A DNA stretch of 7,207 bases, taken from a virus (Duplodnaviria; Heunggongvirae; Uroviricota; Caudoviricetes). Shown one piece after another: positions 1-7,207 of this stretch. The position numbers were made by a program, and so were the translations under genes. The DNA is taken from IMG/VR virus record IMGVR_UViG_2703718769_000012; one strand, 5' to 3'. The notes below the pieces were generated by a model that worked only from the letters and a program-made list of their open reading frames with translations, did not search any database and was not told where the DNA came from. How positions within the stretch are numbered: the stretch's first letter is position 1; every line of letters starts with the position of its first letter.

Positions 1-177
1 ATGATCTGGCAGCCTGAGTTCACAGATAAAACACTCTCCAGGAAAATCGGGGCGGTTCAAAATCTTAATCAGGAAAAGTATGCTAACCATTGTGGTGAAG
101 TGCAGGTTTGCTGCATGAATAGTTTTACAGCAGAAGCTAACTGCTGGCATGGCAAAACAAAGTGCGTAAGTGGATGA
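1..177 (+). CDS. Short Cys/His-rich ORF (58 codons from window position 1, TGA at 175-177), possibly the 3' end of a gene truncated by the window edge
   Basis: Open frame from base 1: MIWQPEFTDK...HCGEVQVCC...CWHGKTKCVSG. It lies just upstream of the lysis cassette, where lambdoid phages carry the late regulator Q, but I do not recognise the sequence as Q. The ATG at position 1 may be coincidental. Confidence 0.35.
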   Translation: MIWQPEFTDKTLSRKIGAVQNLNQEKYANHCGEVQVCCMNSFTAEANCWHGKTKCVSG

Positions 178-202
178 CTCCCACAAAAAGCACCACAATC
201 TC

Positions 203-226
203 AAACCCGCTCAGGCGGGTTTTTTA
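203..226 (+). terminator. Rho-independent terminator
   Basis: Hairpin CCCGC-tcag-GCGGG (206-219) followed by a run of six T (220-225), 26 nt after the upstream ORF stop. Could be the end of the upstream gene or a tR'-like late terminator. Confidence 0.7.
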
Positions 227-284
227 TTATCTGCTTTAAATATATTATTAAAATATAAAAAATACTTGTTACTAATAAAATCAA

Positions 285-455
285 TCAGGCTACAGCTTTA
301 AGATTTGTCTGGAATACTTTGTTGCAATGAGGGCAGATCAAAAGGGCACCTTTTTGTACTCTTGAAAAACTGTGTTCTGACTCTTGGGTGCAGTTTGGGC
401 AGGAACATTTAACGAGATAATTACGGCGTGATTTTGAGTTTTTACGTTCTGACAT
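285..455 (-). CDS. Small zinc-ribbon protein, 56 aa from the internal Met (the ORF track extends it to 506)
   Basis: Minus-strand ORF with a CxCxxC ... CxxC motif (KCSCPNCTQESEHSFSRVQKGALLICPHCNKVF). The internal ATG at 453-455 is preceded by AGGAAA with about 7 nt spacing; the ATG at 504-506 has no Shine-Dalgarno. A TTGAAA -35-like hexamer lies upstream on the minus strand. No homology search was done. Confidence 0.45.
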   Translation of the reverse strand: MSERKNSKSRRNYLVKCSCPNCTQESEHSFSRVQKGALLICPHCNKVFQTNLKAVA

Positions 456-674
456 AGGCTTTTCCTGTATAAATGGCCGTATACAGTACACTAAATATGA
501 AAACATTTCTCGTATTATTATTTTATATATGACTTTCTTTCAAAATAATTACCCACATTTTTAATGTGTATGTTTTTTTAGCGCCGTTGAGAACAACGTG
601 TGCTGTCAAAACTACCCCGTAGACTCCGATCTTTTCAAACATATTGCACCATCCGTGTACATCGGGGTGAGGAT

Positions 675-890
675 ATGAAATCAATGGATAAGTTAACAAC
701 AGGTGTTGCCTATGGCACATCGGCGGGTAATGCTGGTTTCTGGGCATTGCAGTTACTCGATAAAGTAACTCCGTCACAGTGGGCTGCAATCGGTGTGCTG
801 GGTAGCCTGGTTTTTGGCCTGCTGACGTATCTGACAAATCTTTATTTCAAGATTAAAGAAGACAGGCGTAAGGCTGCGAGAGGAGAGTAA
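675..890 (+). CDS. essQ: Phage-21-type class II holin (pinholin) with dual-start motif
   Basis: 71 aa, MKSMDK... gives two starts (Met1 and Met4, antiholin/holin). TMD1 is Gly/Ala-rich ([22 protein letters not shown]-like), TMD2 is [23 protein letters not shown], with a charged C-terminus [13 protein letters not shown]. Closely matches my memory of S21. The ORF track start at 600 is an upstream extension. Confidence 0.9.
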
Positions 891-894
891 TCCA

Positions 895-1202
895 ATGACT
901 CAAGACTATGAACTGGTTGTGAAAGGAGTCCGTAATTTTGAGAATAAAGTTACGGTAACTGTAGCCTTACAGGACAAAGAACGCTTTGACGGTGAAATTT
1001 TTGACCTGGATGTCGCCATGGACCGTGTTGAAGGAGCTGCGCTGGAGTTTTATGAGGCAGCAGCCAGAAGGAGCGTCCGGCAAGTCTTCCTGGAAGTAGC
1101 AGAAAAATTGTCAGAAAAAGTTGAGTCTTATCTGCAGCATCAGTACTCCTTTAAGATTGAAAATCCTGCCAATAAGCACGAGCGTCCTCATCATAAATAT
1201 CT

Positions 1203-1206
<4 letters not shown>
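895..1206 (+). CDS. ydfR: DUF1327-family prophage protein (YdfR-like), function unknown
   Basis: 103-aa ORF starting 4 nt after the holin stop, with its stop overlapping the endolysin start (ATGA at 1203-1206). Same length and position as ydfR in K-12 Qin (from memory). Confidence 0.75.
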
Positions 1207-2230
<1,024 letters not shown>

Positions 2231-2412
2231 GGTAATATTAAATCGGAACATTTACATCGCGGAATGTAAAATTTAAATAAAAAGGACTCTTCCATGAGCC
2301 AAAATTCCTGAAATCTTAAGGGTAAGATAAAAGGTCTTAATCAGAATGACACGTTTTATTAATAAATAAAGCTATTCTTTCATTGCTGTGTTTTTCTTTA
2401 CAAAAGTAATCC

Positions 2413-2592
2413 TTGCTATGGGTGGTTAATCATGCGTTAATGGTGTTCTGGTTTGTTACAAATTTATCTGAAGCAGTCATTGTTATAATTTTATTATTTG
2501 TACCTCTTGAGATTTCCTTGTTGGTTTTTCTCTCTGATATTTTTTTTCGGACCATTCTGCCCAAGGGCTAATTTCTTCAAAAGGTAATAATT
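2413..2592 (+). promoter_or_regulatory. cspI promoter and long cspA-type 5' leader with cold-box-like element
   Basis: Candidate sigma70 promoter: -35 TTGCTA (2413-2418), 17-bp spacer, TGn-extended -10 GTTAAT (2436-2441), predicted start near 2448 and leader about 145 nt. A second candidate is TGtTATAAT at 2481-2489. The leader start (GGTTTGTTACA...AAGCAGTC) resembles the cspA cold-box region, and AAGGTAATAATT precedes the ATG. Start sites are not determinable from sequence alone. Confidence 0.4.
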
Positions 2593-2805
2593 ATGTCTAA
2601 CAAAATGACTGGTTTAGTGAAATGGTTTAACCCTGAAAAAGGTTTTGGTTTCATCACGCCGAAAGATGGCAGCAAAGATGTGTTTGTCCATTTCTCAGCA
2701 ATTCAGAGCAACGATTTCAAAACATTAACTGAGAATCAGGAAGTTGAATTTGGTATTGAGAACGGACCTAAAGGTCCTGCCGCTGTTCATGTAGTGGCGC
2801 TTTGA
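2593..2805 (+). CDS. cspI: Cold-shock protein, CspA family (CspI)
   Basis: 70 aa, [38 protein letters not shown]...: cold-shock domain with RNP1 (KGFGFI) and RNP2 (VFVHF) motifs. Matches CspI as I recall it. AAGG Shine-Dalgarno 8 nt upstream. Confidence 0.95.
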
Positions 2806-2815
2806 GGTAGACAAT

Positions 2816-3004
2816 ATTACAAACCATATTCACTTTAGATGCCCGTGTTGTCATGGTTCCCAGTATAGAACATCATCTTTTGATGTTTCTGACATGAATC
2901 CTTTCGGGGCAAAATGTATCTTTTGTAAATCAATGATGATTACATTTGATAATATTTCACAATACTTAAATGCCAGCCGTCTGTCGTTGGATTTAAAAAA
3001 GTGA
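2816..3004 (+). CDS. Possible small zinc-ribbon protein with no canonical start codon (AUU start candidate, or frameshifted pseudogene)
   Basis: Frame open from 2795 to TGA 3002-3004, with CxxC-(21)-CxxC (RCPCCHGSQYRTSSFDVSDMNPFGAKCIFCKS). No in-frame ATG/GTG/TTG before the first Cys pair. GAGG (2804-2807, overlapping the cspI stop) sits 8 nt before an in-frame ATT at 2816, giving 62 aa. An ATG at 2839-2841 is out of frame by 1 nt across a CCC run. A terminator follows immediately. Confidence 0.3.
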   Translation: MTNHIHFRCPCCHGSQYRTSSFDVSDMNPFGAKCIFCKSMMITFDNISQYLNASRLSLDLKK

Positions 3005-3010
3005 AAATGA

Positions 3011-3032
3011 AGGCTCCTTCGGGAGCTTTTTT
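3011..3032 (+). terminator. Rho-independent terminator with UUCG tetraloop
   Basis: GGCTCC-ttcg-GGAGC hairpin (3012-3026) followed by TTTTTT (3027-3032), 7 nt after the zinc-ribbon ORF stop. Likely ends the cspI transcript. Confidence 0.75.
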
Positions 3033-3076
3033 GCTTGGTGTCTATTCGATGGATACTCACATACTACGGTAACATC

Positions 3077-3307
3077 ATGAAAAAAATCATAGTTTTTTTT
3101 AACTCTGAACCAGCAGTGGTAGTGCCAGCGATGACTGGAGTTAACACCATCATGCGTGAATATCCAAATGGCGAAAAAACACACCTTACTGTAATGGCCG
3201 CAGGGTTTCCATCTCTGACCGGAGATCATAAAGTCATTTATGTAGCCGCGGATCGACATGTTACTTCAGAAGAAATTCTGGAAGCAGCAATAAGGCTCTT
3301 GAGTTGA
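3077..3307 (+). CDS. ynfN: Small protein of the cold-shock cargo module (YnfN-like); start uncertain
   Basis: 76 codons from ATG 3077 (MKKIIVFFNSEPAVVVPAMTG...). Alternative starts are 3131 and 3152; the 3152 form is 51 aa, the length I recall for K-12 YnfN. Sits between cspI and gnsB as ynfN does in Qin. No strong Shine-Dalgarno for any start. Symbol rests on synteny and length, not recalled sequence. Confidence 0.5.
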   Translation: MKKIIVFFNSEPAVVVPAMTGVNTIMREYPNGEKTHLTVMAAGFPSLTGDHKVIYVAADRHVTSEEILEAAIRLLS

Positions 3308-3407
3308 TTTGATGCTATTGCATTGATAATTCAGGAAAATTCTCTTTGTCTGTTTGTGTAAAATTTAGACTATCGTATGTTGATTATTGCGATGTTTCAT
3401 CTTATCT

Positions 3408-3430
3408 TTTACACGTTTGCACCATATAAT
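3408..3430 (+). promoter_or_regulatory. Candidate promoter for gnsB
   Basis: Consensus -10 TATAAT at 3425-3430, about 48 nt upstream of the gnsB start. The -35 is poor (TTTACA at 3408-3413 is only 11 bp away). Sequence-only prediction. Confidence 0.3.
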
Positions 3431-3478
3431 CGACTTACTGTGTAACTGGAAAGTCATAACAGACTAAAAGAGGAAATG

Positions 3479-3652
3479 ATGAATATTGAAAACTTAAAAA
3501 CAAAAGCAGAAGCAGATATTTCTGAATATATAACAAAAAAAATTATTGAACTTAAGAAAAAGACCGGGAAAGAAGTTACCAGTATTCAGTTTACCGCACG
3601 GGAAAAAATGACGGGTCTTGAAAGCTATGATGTCAAGATTAATTTAATCTGA
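3479..3652 (+). CDS. gnsB: GnsA/GnsB-family small protein
   Basis: 57 aa, MNIENLKTKAEADISEYITKKIIELKKKTGKEVTSIQFTAREKMTGLESYDVKINLI. AAGAGGA Shine-Dalgarno 5-6 nt before the second of two adjacent ATGs. TAREKMTGLESYDVKI matches my memory of GnsA/GnsB. Not in the ORF track (under its length cutoff). Confidence 0.85.
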   Translation: MNIENLKTKAEADISEYITKKIIELKKKTGKEVTSIQFTAREKMTGLESYDVKINLI

Positions 3653-3678
3653 TGTATTCAATAATAAAATTTATCCAT

Positions 3679-3704
3679 AAACCTCGTTTTTACGGGGTTT
3701 TGTT
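3679..3704 (+). terminator. Rho-independent terminator downstream of gnsB
   Basis: Stem CCTCG/CGGGG with 6-nt loop (3682-3697), followed by TTTTGTT. Lies between the convergent genes gnsB and ydfO. Confidence 0.55.
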
Positions 3705-3766
3705 ATATTTGAATGGTTCCGAATATCTAAATCACAATTGTTGATGGTTTTTATTAAACCAATGCA

Positions 3767-3795
3767 GTCCGGCTCAGGAGTGAGAGAAGCCGGAC
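3767..3795 (-). terminator. Perfect 8-bp inverted repeat just downstream of ydfO (possible terminator or structured 3' end)
   Basis: GTCCGGCT (3767-3774) and AGCCGGAC (3788-3795) with a 13-nt loop, 9 nt after the ydfO stop. No clear U-tract on the minus strand, so the terminator role is uncertain. Confidence 0.35.
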
Positions 3796-3803
3796 GTTAT
3801 GGT

Positions 3804-4214
3804 TTAGCGTGGTAAGATCTGTGTAGTTTTCTGGATGCTTTCAGTAAATAGTAATGAATTATCAAAGGTATAGTAATATCTTTTTTGTTCGTGGATATTT
3901 GTAACCCACCGAAAAACTCCTGCTTTAGCAAGGTTTCTTCTGTATTCCTGAAATGTGATCTCTCTGGATTTCAGCTTATTAGAGGTCGTTTCTATAAGAT
4001 GCCTATCCTTTGAAAATTTGACAGACACAATGTTTTTTAGGCCCTTTAATAACACTGTATTATCATTTTTTAATACAATATGAACATTCTCTGTGGCTAA
4101 ATAGTAAATGTAATGTGAGACATTGTGACGTTTTAGCTCAGAATAAAACCATTGATAGTTTAAATCGTTTCGAACTTTATCAAATATTTGTTTAAAAATG
4201 ACTACCTGATCCAT
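3804..4214 (-). CDS. ydfO: DUF1398-family prophage protein (YdfO-like), function unknown
   Basis: 136 aa from the ATG at 4212-4214 ([23 protein letters not shown]...), which has GGAAGG 7 nt upstream. The ORF track start at 4229 adds 5 codons. Matches YdfO of Qin in length and, as I recall, sequence. Confidence 0.8.
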
Positions 4215-4439
4215 AGATAAACCTTCCATGTGATATGAGGGGGCGTAGTCTGCACGATTATCTAAATTGCTTCAATCTGGTCTGACCTGTTTTCTGAGCA
4301 ATTCAGTAATGTCACTCTTTTCTTTGTTTGCTTCAGAAGAAACTCTTTTTTCTGAGCACAGTCTCCGGCGGCAGGCTTCAATGACCCAGGCTGAGAAATT
4401 GATTATTTGACGTGGTTTGATGGCCTCCACGCACGTTGT

Positions 4440-4689
4440 GATATGTAGATGATAATCATTATCACTTTACGGGTCCTTTCCGGTGATCCGACAGGTTACG
4501 GGGCGGCGACCTCGCGGGTTTTCGCTATTTATGAAAATTTTCCGGTTTAAGGTGTTTCCGTTCTTCTTCGTCGTAACTTAATGTTTTTATTTAAAATACC
4601 CCCTGAAAAGAAAGGAAACGACAGGTGCTGAAAGCGGGCTTTTTGGCCTTTGTCGTTTCCTTTCTCTGTTTTTGTCCGTGGAATGAACA
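4440..4689. other. Lambda-type cohesive-end site cos (cosQ, cosN, cosB)
   Basis: Near-identical to my memory of the lambda genome ends. Right-end sequence ...GATGATAATCATTATCACTTTACGGGTCCTTTCCGGTGATCCGACAGGTTACG, then the 12-nt cohesive end GGGCGGCGACCT (4501-4512), then cosB with three CGTTTCC-core elements (about 4554-4561, 4614-4622 inverted, 4652-4660) corresponding to R3/R2/R1. Confidence 0.9.
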
Positions 4690-5235
4690 ATGGAAGTCAA
4701 CAAAAAGCAGCTGGCTGACATTTTCGGTGCGAGTATCCGTACCATTCAGAACTGGCAGGAACAGGGAATGCCCGTTCTGCGAGGCGGTGGCAAGGGTAAT
4801 GAGGTGCTTTATGATTCTGCCGCCGTCATAAAATGGTATGCCGAAAGGGATGCTGAAATTGAGAACGAAAAGCTGCGCCGGGAAGTTGAAGAACTGCGGC
4901 AGGCCAGCGAGACAGATCTCCAGCCAGGGACTATTGAGTACGAACGCCATCGACTTACGCGTGCGCAGGCCGACGCACAGGAGCTGAAAAATGCCAGAGA
5001 CTCCGCTGAAGTGGTGGAAACCGCATTCTGTACTTTCGTGCTGTCGCGGATCGCAGGTGAAATTGCCAGTATTCTCGACGGGATCCCCCTGTCGGTGCAG
5101 CGGCGTTTTCCGGAACTGGAAAACCGACATGTTGATTTCCTGAAACGGGATATCATCAAAGCCATGAACAAAGCAGCCGCGCTGGATGAACTGATAACGG
5201 GGCGCACTTTGACGGTGACCAGAGCGGCACGGTGA
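4690..5235 (+). CDS. nohA: Terminase small subunit, lambda Nu1 homologue with a replaced C-terminus
   Basis: 181 aa, MEVNKKQLADIFGASIRTIQNWQEQGMPVLRGGGKGNEVLYD... matches lambda Nu1 as I recall it through ...KAMNKAAALDELI. The last ~12 residues (TGRTLTVTRAAR) are read out of frame from J-derived DNA. Sits directly downstream of cosB. Confidence 0.9.
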   Translation: MEVNKKQLADIFGASIRTIQNWQEQGMPVLRGGGKGNEVLYDSAAVIKWYAERDAEIENEKLRREVEELRQASETDLQPGTIEYERHRLTRAQADAQELKNARDSAEVVETAFCTFVLSRIAGEIASILDGIPLSVQRRFPELENRHVDFLKRDIIKAMNKAAALDELITGRTLTVTRAAR

Positions 5236-5497
5236 ATGGTGTCACGCCGCCAGCAGTTCAGCACCTGACCGCAGAAGTCACCGCAGACAGCGGGGAATAC
5301 CAGGTGCTGGCGCGCTGGGACACGCCGAAGGTGGTGAAGGGGGTGAGCTTTATGCTTCGCCTGACCGTGGCAGCGGACGACGGCAGTGAGCGGTTGGTCA
5401 GCACGGCCCGGACGACGGAAACCACATATCGCTTCACGCAGCTGGCGCTGGGAAATTACAGGCTGACAGTCCGGGCGGTAAATGCATGGGGACAGCC
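5199..5497 (+). pseudogene. Internal fragment of tail host-specificity gene J (about 100 codons), no 5' or 3' part
   Basis: Frame beginning near 5199 reads ...GAHFDGDQSGT(V)NGVTPPAVQHLTAEVTADSGEYQVLARWDTPKVVKGVSF...[23 protein letters not shown], which I recognise as an internal stretch of lambda gpJ. It is out of frame with Nu1 upstream and stf downstream. The ORF-track start at 5232 is a GTG within this fragment. Confidence 0.7.
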
Positions 5498-5794
5498 GGT
5501 GCACATACCCATTCGATGACATTTGTTTCAGGTGGTTCCAGTGGTGCTCCGGGAAGTGGATCACCTGATTATTCTAAATACAGTGTTAACACTTCTTCTG
5601 CAGGCGCTCATACGCACTCTGTATCGGGTACTGCTGCAAGCGCAGGTGCACACGCACATACTGTCGGTATTGGTGCTCATACGCACTCCGTTGCGATTGG
5701 TTCACATGGACATACCATCACCGTTAACGCTGCTGGTAACGCGGAAAACACCGTCAAAAACATCGCATTTAACTATATTGTGAGGCTTGCGTAA
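5486..5794 (+). pseudogene. 3'-terminal fragment of side tail fibre gene stf (C-terminal ~100 codons)
   Basis: Ends ...[32 protein letters not shown], the lambda Stf C-terminus as I recall it, with GAHTHS/GAHAHT histidine repeats. Stop overlaps the tfa start (TAATG). The ATG at 5486 lies inside J-derived sequence and has no convincing Shine-Dalgarno. Confidence 0.75.
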
Positions 5795-6369
5795 TGGCAT
5801 TCAGAATGAGTGAACAACCACGGACCATAAAAATTTATAATCTGCTGGCCGGAACTAATGAATTTATTGGTGAAGGTGACGCATATATTCCGCCTCATAC
5901 AGGTCTGCCAGCAAACAGTACCGATATTGCACCGCCAGATATTCCGGCAGGCTTCGTGGCTGTTTTCAACAGTGATGAGGCATCGTGGCATCTCGTTGAA
6001 GATCATCGGGGTAAAACGGTTTATGACGTGGCATCAGGGGACGCGTTATTTATTTCTGAACTCGGTCCGTTACCGGAAAATGTTACCTGGTTATCGCCGG
6101 GAGGGGAATATCAGAAGTGGAACGGCACAGCCTGGGTGAAGGATACGGAAGCAGAAAAACTGTTCCGGATCCGGGAGGCGGAAGAAACAAAAAACAGCCT
6201 GATGCAGATAGCCAGTGAGCATATAGCGCCGCTTCAGGATGCTGTGGATCTGGAGATCGCAACGGAGGAAGAAACCTTGTTGCTGGAAGCCTGGAAAAAG
6301 TATCGGGTGTTGCTGAACCGTGTTGATACATCAACTGCACCGGATATTGAATGGCCAGCACTGCCGTAG
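5794..6369 (+). CDS. tfaQ: Tail fibre assembly protein (Tfa)
   Basis: 191 aa, [54 protein letters not shown]..., near-identical to lambda Tfa as I recall it. Coupled to the stf fragment by the TAATG overlap. Confidence 0.9.
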
Positions 6370-6466
6370 GGTAAAACATATAAATTCTATAATTAGATGT
6401 ATCTCTCCATTTACGGCAAGGAAGGGGGCTTGGAAGACGTAAAGCATCTCACACCGAGATTATTTT

Positions 6467-7057
6467 TTATATGTCAGGTGTCTGAAGTTTTGCTTTGGCT
6501 CTTAAAATGGTTTGCCGCGAGGTTTTGAATTCCCGGGCAATGGCACTTATACTTACACCTGACTTAATTCGTTCGAATACCACCTGTTTCTGTTCTTCAT
6601 TTAACACAGGTGGTCGACCAAAACGTTTCCCTGCGCCGCGGGCTCTTACTATCCCGGAATGAGTGCGTTCAAGTAAAAGGTCTCGTTCAAATTCAGCGAC
6701 TGCTGAAATTACGTGCATCATCATTTTTCCTGTTGGACTGGTCAGGTCAATGCCCCCCAATGCTAAGCAATGCACTCTGATACCTGTTTCGGTCAGTTGT
6801 TCCACTGTTTTCCTGATATCCATTGCATTACAACCAAGGCGATCCAGTTTTGTCACAATCAATTGATCACCACATTTCAGGCGAGCAAGCAACCGGTTAA
6901 AACCAGGACGCTCACTGGTTGCTGCTGAGCCGCTAATGTGTTCTTCGATTATTTGCTGAGGTTTGATTTTAAAACCTGCACTTTCGATTTCCCGGCGTTG
7001 ATTTTCGGTGGTCTGATCCAGCGTTGATATCCGACAGTAAGCAAAAATTCGAGACAT
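6467..7057 (-). CDS. pinQ: Site-specific DNA invertase, serine recombinase of the Hin/Gin/Cin/Pin family
   Basis: 196 aa. N-terminal catalytic motif Y-C-R-I-S-T-L-D-Q (catalytic Ser11), resolvase-type catalytic domain, C-terminal HTH ([20 protein letters not shown]). Appears intact. Lies next to tfa, as Pin genes do in e14, Rac and Qin. Confidence 0.93.
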
Positions 7058-7207
7058 AGTGAGACTCTATACGAAATTGGTGTTCATATCATAATGCATC
7101 TCAGAAAATAATTTTGATTATTTTTGTGCATATTTGTATGTACACGTTCGAAAATAAACGAATGCGTATGCAACCCCGTAACGGTGATGCTGCCAACTTA
7201 CTGATTT

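Follow-up and report, generated by a model that had tools for sequence, protein, structure and literature searches.

The locus and its layout

Positions 4440–5235 of the stretch of DNA analysed here (7,207 nucleotides from the IMG/VR virus record IMGVR_UViG_2703718769_000012, called the window at its full length) carry a cos site of the phage lambda type, followed by an open reading frame (ORF) closely related to Nu1, the lambda gene for the small terminase subunit (TerS). The ORF listing and similarity searches gave the gene order essQ-ydfR-rrrQ-rzpQ-cspI-ynfQ/R/N-gnsB-ydfO-cos-nohA-J fragment-stf fragment-tfaQ-pinQ. On its sequence, the window is the late region of the Escherichia coli cryptic lambdoid prophage Qin, and 4440–5235 is the annotated cos-nohA of that prophage. 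Window 58–4400 and 4397–7182 match annotated Qin loci of many complete genomes, E. coli ML35 among them, at 100% identity; 596 genomes cover 80% or more of the window, Qin is annotated at the matching locus of K-12, and RefSeq genomes annotate 4690–5235 as nohA. The Qin piece present here measures 7.1 kb and is flanked on the left by the end of an IS629/IS1203-like insertion sequence (IS) and on the right (7183–7207) by what appears to be an IS1 end. Such flanks would point to an IS-rich host, probably a Shigella or an E. coli with many of these elements.

The cos site compared with lambda

The sequence-only reading from which this analysis started held that cosQ, cosN and cosB are kept almost base for base. 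This is borne out by alignment to lambda (NC_001416; coordinates of the cos anatomy from PMC9026076, Murialdo and Feiss), as homology spans window 4397–5202, collinear with lambda 48399–48502 followed by 1–703. There are no mismatches in window 4397–4500, and in 4501–5202 there are 12 mismatches and a single gap (138delG). The gap concerns a G at bp 138 of NC_001416, between R2 and R1, which is absent in the window, in both Qin copies and in each of the eleven further phages of the alignment.

The packaging-termination signal cosQ, located about 30 bp upstream of the position of the top-strand nick, is identical to that of lambda; its 7-bp definition is reportedly owed to Wieczorek and Feiss (2001). 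The cohesive end GGGCGGCGACCT is also that of lambda, and homology predicts that cosN is nicked at 4500/4501 on the top strand and at 4512/4513 on the bottom one. Within cosB, the order R3-R2-R1 is kept, with the expected place of the IHF site I1 between R3 and R2, the spacing from cosN to R3 and cosB is unchanged and without insertions or deletions, and five substitutions separate the window from lambda, at bp 53, 73, 102, 137 and 151 (window 4553, 4573, 4602, 4637 and 4650). R2 and the R1 15-mer are identical to those of lambda, with C151T falling at the edge of R1, and only C53T lies in R3. In lambda, R3 covers bp 50–65, nuclear magnetic resonance places the TerS contacts at bp 55–63, and functional mutations are found at bp 56, 58 and 59 (PMC9026076); the substitution at bp 53 is thus outside the contacts and at none of the three mutated positions, while bp 54–65 are identical. 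None of the changes in the cos site falls at a position known to matter. Between R3 and R2, bp 73 and 102 are the sole positions at which the spacer departs from lambda, and most of the phages compared also carry these two changes. A scan for the IHF pattern WATCAANNNNTTR at I1 gave no match either in the window or in lambda itself.

All five cosB changes co-occur in the deposited lambda-like phages 2H10 and PhiR70_1, and several of them are found in most of the ten phages compared; the change in R3 is additionally carried by PhiR29_1 and Stx1_112808. Since the same combination occurs in deposited phages, the cosB of the window appears to be a natural, working phage allele. By every sequence criterion that could be assessed, this cos is a member of the lambda-type family.

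A truncated Nu1 protein

The nohA ORF encodes a protein of 181 amino acids whose residues 1–169 are those of Nu1 except for A75T and L132I, whereas residues 170–181 derive from J sequence read out of frame (TGRTLTVTRAAR), G171 being retained by coincidence. It had been anticipated that a near full-length Nu1 would be present with only about 12 final codons replaced, and this is what the ORF contains. The Pfam profile Phage_Nu1 (PF07471) is matched over positions 1–164 of 164 (336 bits, E=4e-101), and the sequence includes both the DNA-binding domain at the N terminus, a winged helix-turn-helix (wHTH), and the central oligomerisation region. By contrast, the C-terminal segment that binds the large terminase subunit (TerL) is not kept complete, and the adjacent TerL gene, A, is wholly deleted. 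In lambda, this segment is the TerL-binding domain, for which the last 30–40 residues are needed, and binding to TerL is poor once TerS has lost its last 30 residues (PMC9026076). With part of the TerL-binding tail lost and no TerL partner, NohA should not be a working terminase subunit.

Missing genes and deletion joints

Two segments of the lambda map are absent, 698–17305 (16.6 kb) and approximately 17609–21678 (about 4.1 kb), which together amount to about 20.7 kb and agree with the earlier estimate of roughly 20 kb of lost morphogenesis genes. That this loss extends from A through most of J is also correct as regards the loss, while the wording is slightly off, as the piece of J that survives is internal rather than C-terminal. 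What is left consists of this 303-bp fragment (J residues ~601–701), the last ~100 codons of stf and an intact tfa gene. At the first joint, CTGATA/ACGGGGCGCAC (the slash marks the joint, 5196/5197), lambda 697 is connected to J 17306 within the imperfect repeat GATA-N-CGGGG; at the second, near 5496–5499, J 17608 runs into an stf allele of which the final ~100 codons are left. The 20.7 kb would have been lost through two microhomology deletions. One metagenome contig (L296) has the Nu1::J joint of the window and is a likely precursor of the double deletion, because its J homology continues past lambda 17608.

A third deletion, of 200 bp (lambda 48199–48398), has eliminated the greater part of ynfO, and its end lies 71 bp upstream of cosQ. 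An exact search with the protein of the truncated ynfO ORF gave no match. The missing segment is present in ML35, K-12, lambda and the top-ranked complete genomes of E. coli, and an exact scan did not find the junction among GTDB species representatives. This deletion appears to be specific to the Qin copy of the window. The features of the window are collected in Table 1.

Table 1. Features of the 7,207-nucleotide window (positions in window coordinates)
Feature	Position	Strand	Remarks
IS629/IS1203-like (IS3 family) right end	1–59		96.6% to annotated IS1203/IS629 repeat end of O157 Sakai; Qin identity from ~58
ynfO-side deletion junction	4397–4400		Lambda 48199–48398 (200 bp) gone, 4-bp overlap; 71 bp upstream of cosQ
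cosQ (GGGTCCT), packaging-termination signal	4471–4477	+	Equals lambda 48473–48479
cosN	4498–4514	+	17-mer ACGGGGCGGCGACCTCG, equal to lambda; cohesive-end sequence 4501–4512
cosB	4550–4665	+	R3 4550–4565; spacer with putative IHF site I1; R2 4609–4624 (inverted); R1 4651–4665
nohA	4690–5235	+	Nu1 codons 1–169 at 4690–5196, then 12 out-of-frame codons from J DNA and a stop
Nu1::J deletion joint (5196/5197)	5193–5202	+	Imperfect microhomology GATA-N-CGGGG; recurrent hot-spot endpoint
Internal fragment of tail-tip gene J, Ig-like domain	5197–5499	+	Lambda 17306–17608, 92% identity; Pfam Ig_J, E=6e-35
stf (side tail fibre), C-terminal remnant	5500–5794	+	Pfam Phage_fiber repeat; annotated as partial tail fiber protein; joined to J at ~5496–5499
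tfaQ, intact tail fibre assembly gene	5794–6369	+	Annotation and profile match
pinQ, serine DNA invertase (not an integrase)	6467–7057	−	Pfam Resolvase and HTH_7; annotation
IS1 terminal inverted repeat (presumed)	7183–7207		Qin identity ends at 7182; the 25-mer is also present elsewhere, at contig positions of further loci

Other features of the window include two Rfam matches at gathering score, the cspA thermoregulator upstream of and into cspI (2447–2832, 113 bits) and the IS009 family within tfaQ (6137–6335, 221 bits). At window 3093, a difference of one base in a run of T relative to K-12 shifts the frame of ynfN, whose annotated length is 231 bp in ML35 against 156 bp for the K-12 gene.

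A recurrent deletion endpoint at the 3′ end of Nu1

The left end of the first deletion is not peculiar to the window. The 3′ end of Nu1 (lambda 697–700, GATACCG, in the stretch GATACCGGGG), just before the ribosome-binding site and start codon of A, is a recurrent left endpoint of deletions in lambdoid prophages, with about 20 or more distinct joints in public contigs whose partners lie in A, W/B, E, Z, J, lom and stf. E. coli genomes sampled with lambda 500–900 gave the first additional Nu1::J joints. For instance, another chromosomal locus, in strain AR_0369, has GATACC/CGAACAC, which joins Nu1 to J at ~16140, and a prophage adjoining the bio genes in enterotoxigenic E. coli has GATA/TCGGTGCC, which joins Nu1 to J-like sequence at ~18140. 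Subsequent scans were made in IMG/VR and, separately, in metagenome contigs, using exact patterns in which Nu1 18-mers are followed by a non-cognate base. In IMG/VR there were at least eight distinct joints at lambda 697 (with right ends at A 2489, Z 8065, J 17306 and J 17971, in lom-like and fibre-like sequence and in one unassigned sequence), four to five at lambda 699 (A 2246; J 15806, 16140 and 16488) and one at lambda 700. The metagenome contigs added, for the 697 class, 13 Nu1-bearing contigs with 11 different right sides, of which A 2179, W/B 2694, E 6595 and stf 21851 were new. No joint was found at the control positions lambda 640, 676, 703 and 760, where the IMG/VR scans returned single-nucleotide variants or chance matches only.

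Among 113 viral contigs with Nu1, chosen more or less without bias, seven carry true deletions; three of them start at 697, 699 or 720, and the remaining four are spread over 880–1534. A second cluster of endpoints may exist at lambda 719/720, where both K-12 Qin and one further locus (L169) break. In a metagenome contig (L287), the stf right side of K-12 is joined at lambda 697 instead of 720, with a shared ATA, which would imply a nested second event at the hot spot. A GTDB scan with a Nu1 18-mer returned mostly intact lambda or DLP12-type loci and no further joints; it also returned short contigs with intact lambda Nu1-A in unrelated genomes (Marinifilum, Bradyrhizobium, Kitasatospora and others), most likely lambda DNA contaminating the assemblies.

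With regard to mechanism, directly to the left of the joint every partner site has TA in common with Nu1, and in many cases GATA or TACC, and the partners are enriched for similarity to CCGGGG to its right (23/48 positions). The joints are best described as of the annealing type, presumably formed at a break or stall just to the right of lambda 697–700. Several specific candidates for its origin were considered and rejected. A quasi-site for a Pin/Gin-type invertase is suggested by the ACC-GG-GGTT core in Nu1, but exchange at a central dinucleotide would not give the joints observed, and the partners lack right half-sites. An IS target with adjacent deletion has a precedent in the ISEc8 inserted ~275 bp into nu1 of Sakai Sp4, but no IS end was seen at any joint. 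Folding of the DNA of lambda 650–770 gave no sign of a local hairpin (z = 0.19), and inspection by eye for Chi, type I restriction sites, a pseudo-cosN or a gyrase site gave nothing convincing.

In all derivatives with visible sequence, Nu1 is intact to residue 169 and continues into random appended tails, and nearly all of these derivatives also have undamaged cosQ and cosN. That the endpoints cluster to the single nucleotide, and do so in different reading frames, favours a mutational cause over one acting on the protein. A deletion that starts at lambda 697–700 automatically leaves cos and Nu1 behind, and the hot spot could in this way explain why exactly these elements survive without invoking a function in packaging. 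This undercuts the original argument that retention of precisely this module implies that it is used.

Can the remnant be cut and packaged?

Cutting at this cos in trans by a terminase of lambda specificity is plausible. Helper terminase has been found to initiate packaging at the chromosomal cos of repressed prophages (passive prophages studied in the Feiss laboratory; PMC4669245). After cutting, however, terminase remains at the end that carries cosB and moves along the DNA with cosQ behind it, and a downstream cosQ-cosN is needed to finish (PMC9026076, PMC4669245). From the cos of the window, packaging would take in nohA, tfaQ, pinQ and the IS1 end and then enter flanking DNA, with the remaining Qin genes on the unpackaged side. 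In ML35, the closest complete genome and the only one checked, no second cosN (up to 2 mismatches in 17) occurs within 64 kb downstream. A cosmid-like substrate was taken to be one with two cos sites in the same orientation 38–51 kb apart, or with multimers of a replicon, and ML35 does not correspond to this description.

The modules that would support mobility are also missing. The window has no integrase, excision or replication module, pinQ being an invertase of the resolvase type; related Qin copies have int and xis annotated and no replication genes. Neither an Rpp-type protein nor an island-specific cosB was found in it, as its cosB is lambda-type and the adjacent ORF is the truncated Nu1. 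In the work of Sternberg and Weisberg (1975), lambda prophages that had not been excised are said to have given particles with one cohesive end, and packaging from the present cos would be expected to resemble that outcome. PMC8008629, which refers to their study, also mentions packaging from unexcised prophages, and Qin, DLP12 and Rac do not excise during infection of K-12 by lambda (PMC3945230, De Paepe et al.).

The suggestion that the element could still be cut and packaged in trans by a superinfecting lambdoid phage can consequently be maintained for its first part, given the intact cos and the chromosomal precedent, and not for its second. Cosmid- or satellite-like transfer of the remnant is not supported, as its single cos points away from the remaining Qin genes, no second cosN lies within 64 kb downstream in ML35 and Qin of K-12 does not excise on lambda infection.

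Probable exchange with active phages

Comparison with K-12 points to a different role for the segment. Over about 4.5 kb up to lambda bp 52, the Qin of K-12 and that of the window differ by one homopolymer indel; seven differences then follow within the 123 bp of cosB and three more up to window 4832 (nohA codon 48), after which the two are identical to their breakpoints. The cosB allele of K-12 Qin is shared with PhiR34_1 and PhiR42_1, that of the window with 2H10 and PhiR70_1. Such a distribution has the appearance of a short conversion patch that starts next to cosN, and this agrees with the report that half of the recombination joints between lambda and DLP12 are right at cos (PMC3945230). 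The remnant probably exchanges sequence with active phages, and its near-identity to them could be a consequence of this exchange. A chromosomal cos with an intact sequence is, moreover, a potential break site and anchor for recombination whenever a phage of lambda specificity grows.

Interpretation and alternatives

We consider that the region is the cos and nohA of the cryptic prophage Qin, a fossil left by deletional decay that could be cut but not transmitted, and we give this reading a probability of roughly three in four. Two microhomology deletions would account for the loss, one taking A to mid-J and a later one what remained of J together with lom and most of stf. The earlier of them would end at the 3′ end of Nu1, at a point where breaks or stalls recur, with the result that cosQ-cosN-cosB and Nu1 codons 1–169 were spared. 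A phage of lambda packaging specificity, whether superinfecting or induced, should then be able to bind cosB and nick cosN. Following established lambda biology, packaging would run rightwards into flanking DNA and, with no terminating cos, yield an abortive product or one with a single cohesive end (docL-type). The realistic role of the segment would be that of a substrate for homologous recombination, and possibly a break site, for exchange with active lambdoid phages, and such exchange would keep it close to the phage sequence.

Some observations weigh against this reading. Selection for keeping cos and Nu1, or for a TerS without its tail, might conceivably be the reason for the hot spot. 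The boundary of the mosaic could fall anywhere in the ~350 bp next to cos. Additionally, ML35-type Qin keeps an annotated integrase and excisionase and measures ~24 kb, so a dimer would fit the lambda head; rare mobilisation of such copies in some hosts is nevertheless remote, because they have no replication genes and no excision has been observed.

These points lead to the alternatives in which the module is used. If helper terminase packages DNA from chromosomal cos sites, the solitary cos might act as a launch or stop site for the packaging of chromosomal neighbours, giving docL-type or rare transducing particles, or a complete molecule where a second cos in the same orientation lies 38–51 kb away in a polylysogen. 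The initiation (cosN and cosB) and termination (cosQ and cosN) signals are both intact, packaging from unexcised prophages is on record (PMC8008629), and tandem passive prophages allow cos-to-cos packaging of chromosomal DNA with 1–4 virions per cell (PMC4669245). On the other hand, the one genome checked, ML35, has no partner cos and nothing suggests selection for such a role, which we regard as improbable. Particles that end without a cos are, besides, largely non-infectious. Less probable still is that the whole remnant is a cos-type hitchhiker, comparable to a cosmid or satellite, whose module was kept for mobility through a lambda- or phi80-type helper. Its intact cos with a phage-type cosB, the action of helper terminase on chromosomal cos sites (PMC4669245), the packaging of defective O157 prophages without head or packaging genes by co-resident prophages (PMC2669165), the use of cos sites by E. 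coli phage-inducible chromosomal islands (PICIs) and the int, xis and size of ML35-type Qin would all suit that account, which we nonetheless find very unlikely. The cos is single, is oriented away from the remaining genes and has no second cosN within 64 kb in ML35; the 7.1-kb piece, bounded by IS ends, has no integrase in the window, no replication module and no Rpp-like redirecting protein, NohA being an ordinary truncated TerS; K-12 Qin is not excised on infection by lambda (PMC3945230); and the retention of the module is accounted for by the deletion hot spot.

That last point also bears on whether NohA was kept for its own function. A TerS with its DNA-binding and oligomerisation core and without its TerL-binding tail might poison or misdirect an incoming terminase in the manner of the Rpp of PICIs, in which case truncation at codons 169–170 would reflect selection. 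The many independent truncations that remove only the last 5–12 codons and leave the ORF intact to residue 169 would be expected under this proposal, as would the identity of the lost segment with the TerL-binding domain, and Rpp does work by binding TerS. By contrast, endpoints that are precise to one nucleotide (697, 699 and 700), fall in different frames and carry random tails, including a J fusion of 300 amino acids, suggest a mutational cause; endpoints inside A exist as well, and DLP12 keeps a full-length NohD. Lambda also plates normally on K-12, a carrier of nohA. Hence, we think a function of NohA very unlikely.

A further question is whether cos with Nu1(1–169) is the product of a site-directed process, either a specific nick, break or replication stall where Nu1 meets A, which terminase or replication through cos might be involved in, or selection for a TerS without its TerL-binding tail. 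We put this forward only tentatively and would sooner bet against it. If it were true, it would represent a previously undescribed route by which prophage remnants retaining only a packaging site arise across E. coli. An endpoint shared to the nucleotide by many independent prophages suggests that their decay is not random at this point, and its clustering bears on the origin of cryptic prophages and on the abundance of Nu1 homologues (noh genes) in E. coli. The hot spot is the one item that might surprise specialists in lambda. The locus itself is ordinary and already annotated, as Qin nohA/cos in a breakpoint variant relative to K-12, and in-trans packaging of defective prophages is an established idea.

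Comparison with known systems

Judged against systems already described, the locus would be a truncated member of the gpNu1 family that lacks the features of both PICI-type satellites and cosmid-like substrates. The cos-type PICIs of E. coli with Rpp resemble it in being chromosomal elements without capsid genes in which cos adjoins a TerS-like wHTH gene. They differ in having integrase, replication and helper-sensing modules, a cosB of their own and Rpp, which retargets the TerS of the helper, whereas the window has the cosB type of lambda itself, a truncated TerS and no mobility modules. In the tandem passive prophages of the Feiss laboratory and in lambda doc particles, terminase acting in trans starts at a chromosomal cos and moves rightwards, as it would here; however, productive packaging from the passive prophages needs a second cos one genome length downstream, and none was found for this locus (64 kb, ML35). 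The defective prophages of O157 Sakai are also degraded lambdoid elements, packaged through complementation by co-resident prophages (PMC2669165), but they still excise or co-amplify and most of them retain terminase genes, while the Qin remnant shows neither.

The closest relatives are found within K-12. DLP12 has, in nohD-cos, a lambda-type cos and a Nu1 homologue in a defective prophage, and it recombines with infecting lambda through joints concentrated at cos (PMC3945230). It differs in that its Nu1 is full-length and the 5′ portion of A persists, and experiments have demonstrated the function of its segment, though not of that of Qin, after transfer into lambda. The nohA-cos of K-12 Qin (b1548) is the same chromosomal element with the same gene order, identical cosQ and cosN and 99.98% DNA identity from essQ to cosN. 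The K-12 copy breaks Nu1 at lambda 719/720 and continues directly into stf (NohA of 189 amino acids, StfQ of 320). By contrast, the break in the window copy is at 697, a piece of J survives together with a shorter remainder of stf, the cosB allele is a different one, 200 bp of ynfO are missing and IS ends flank the element.

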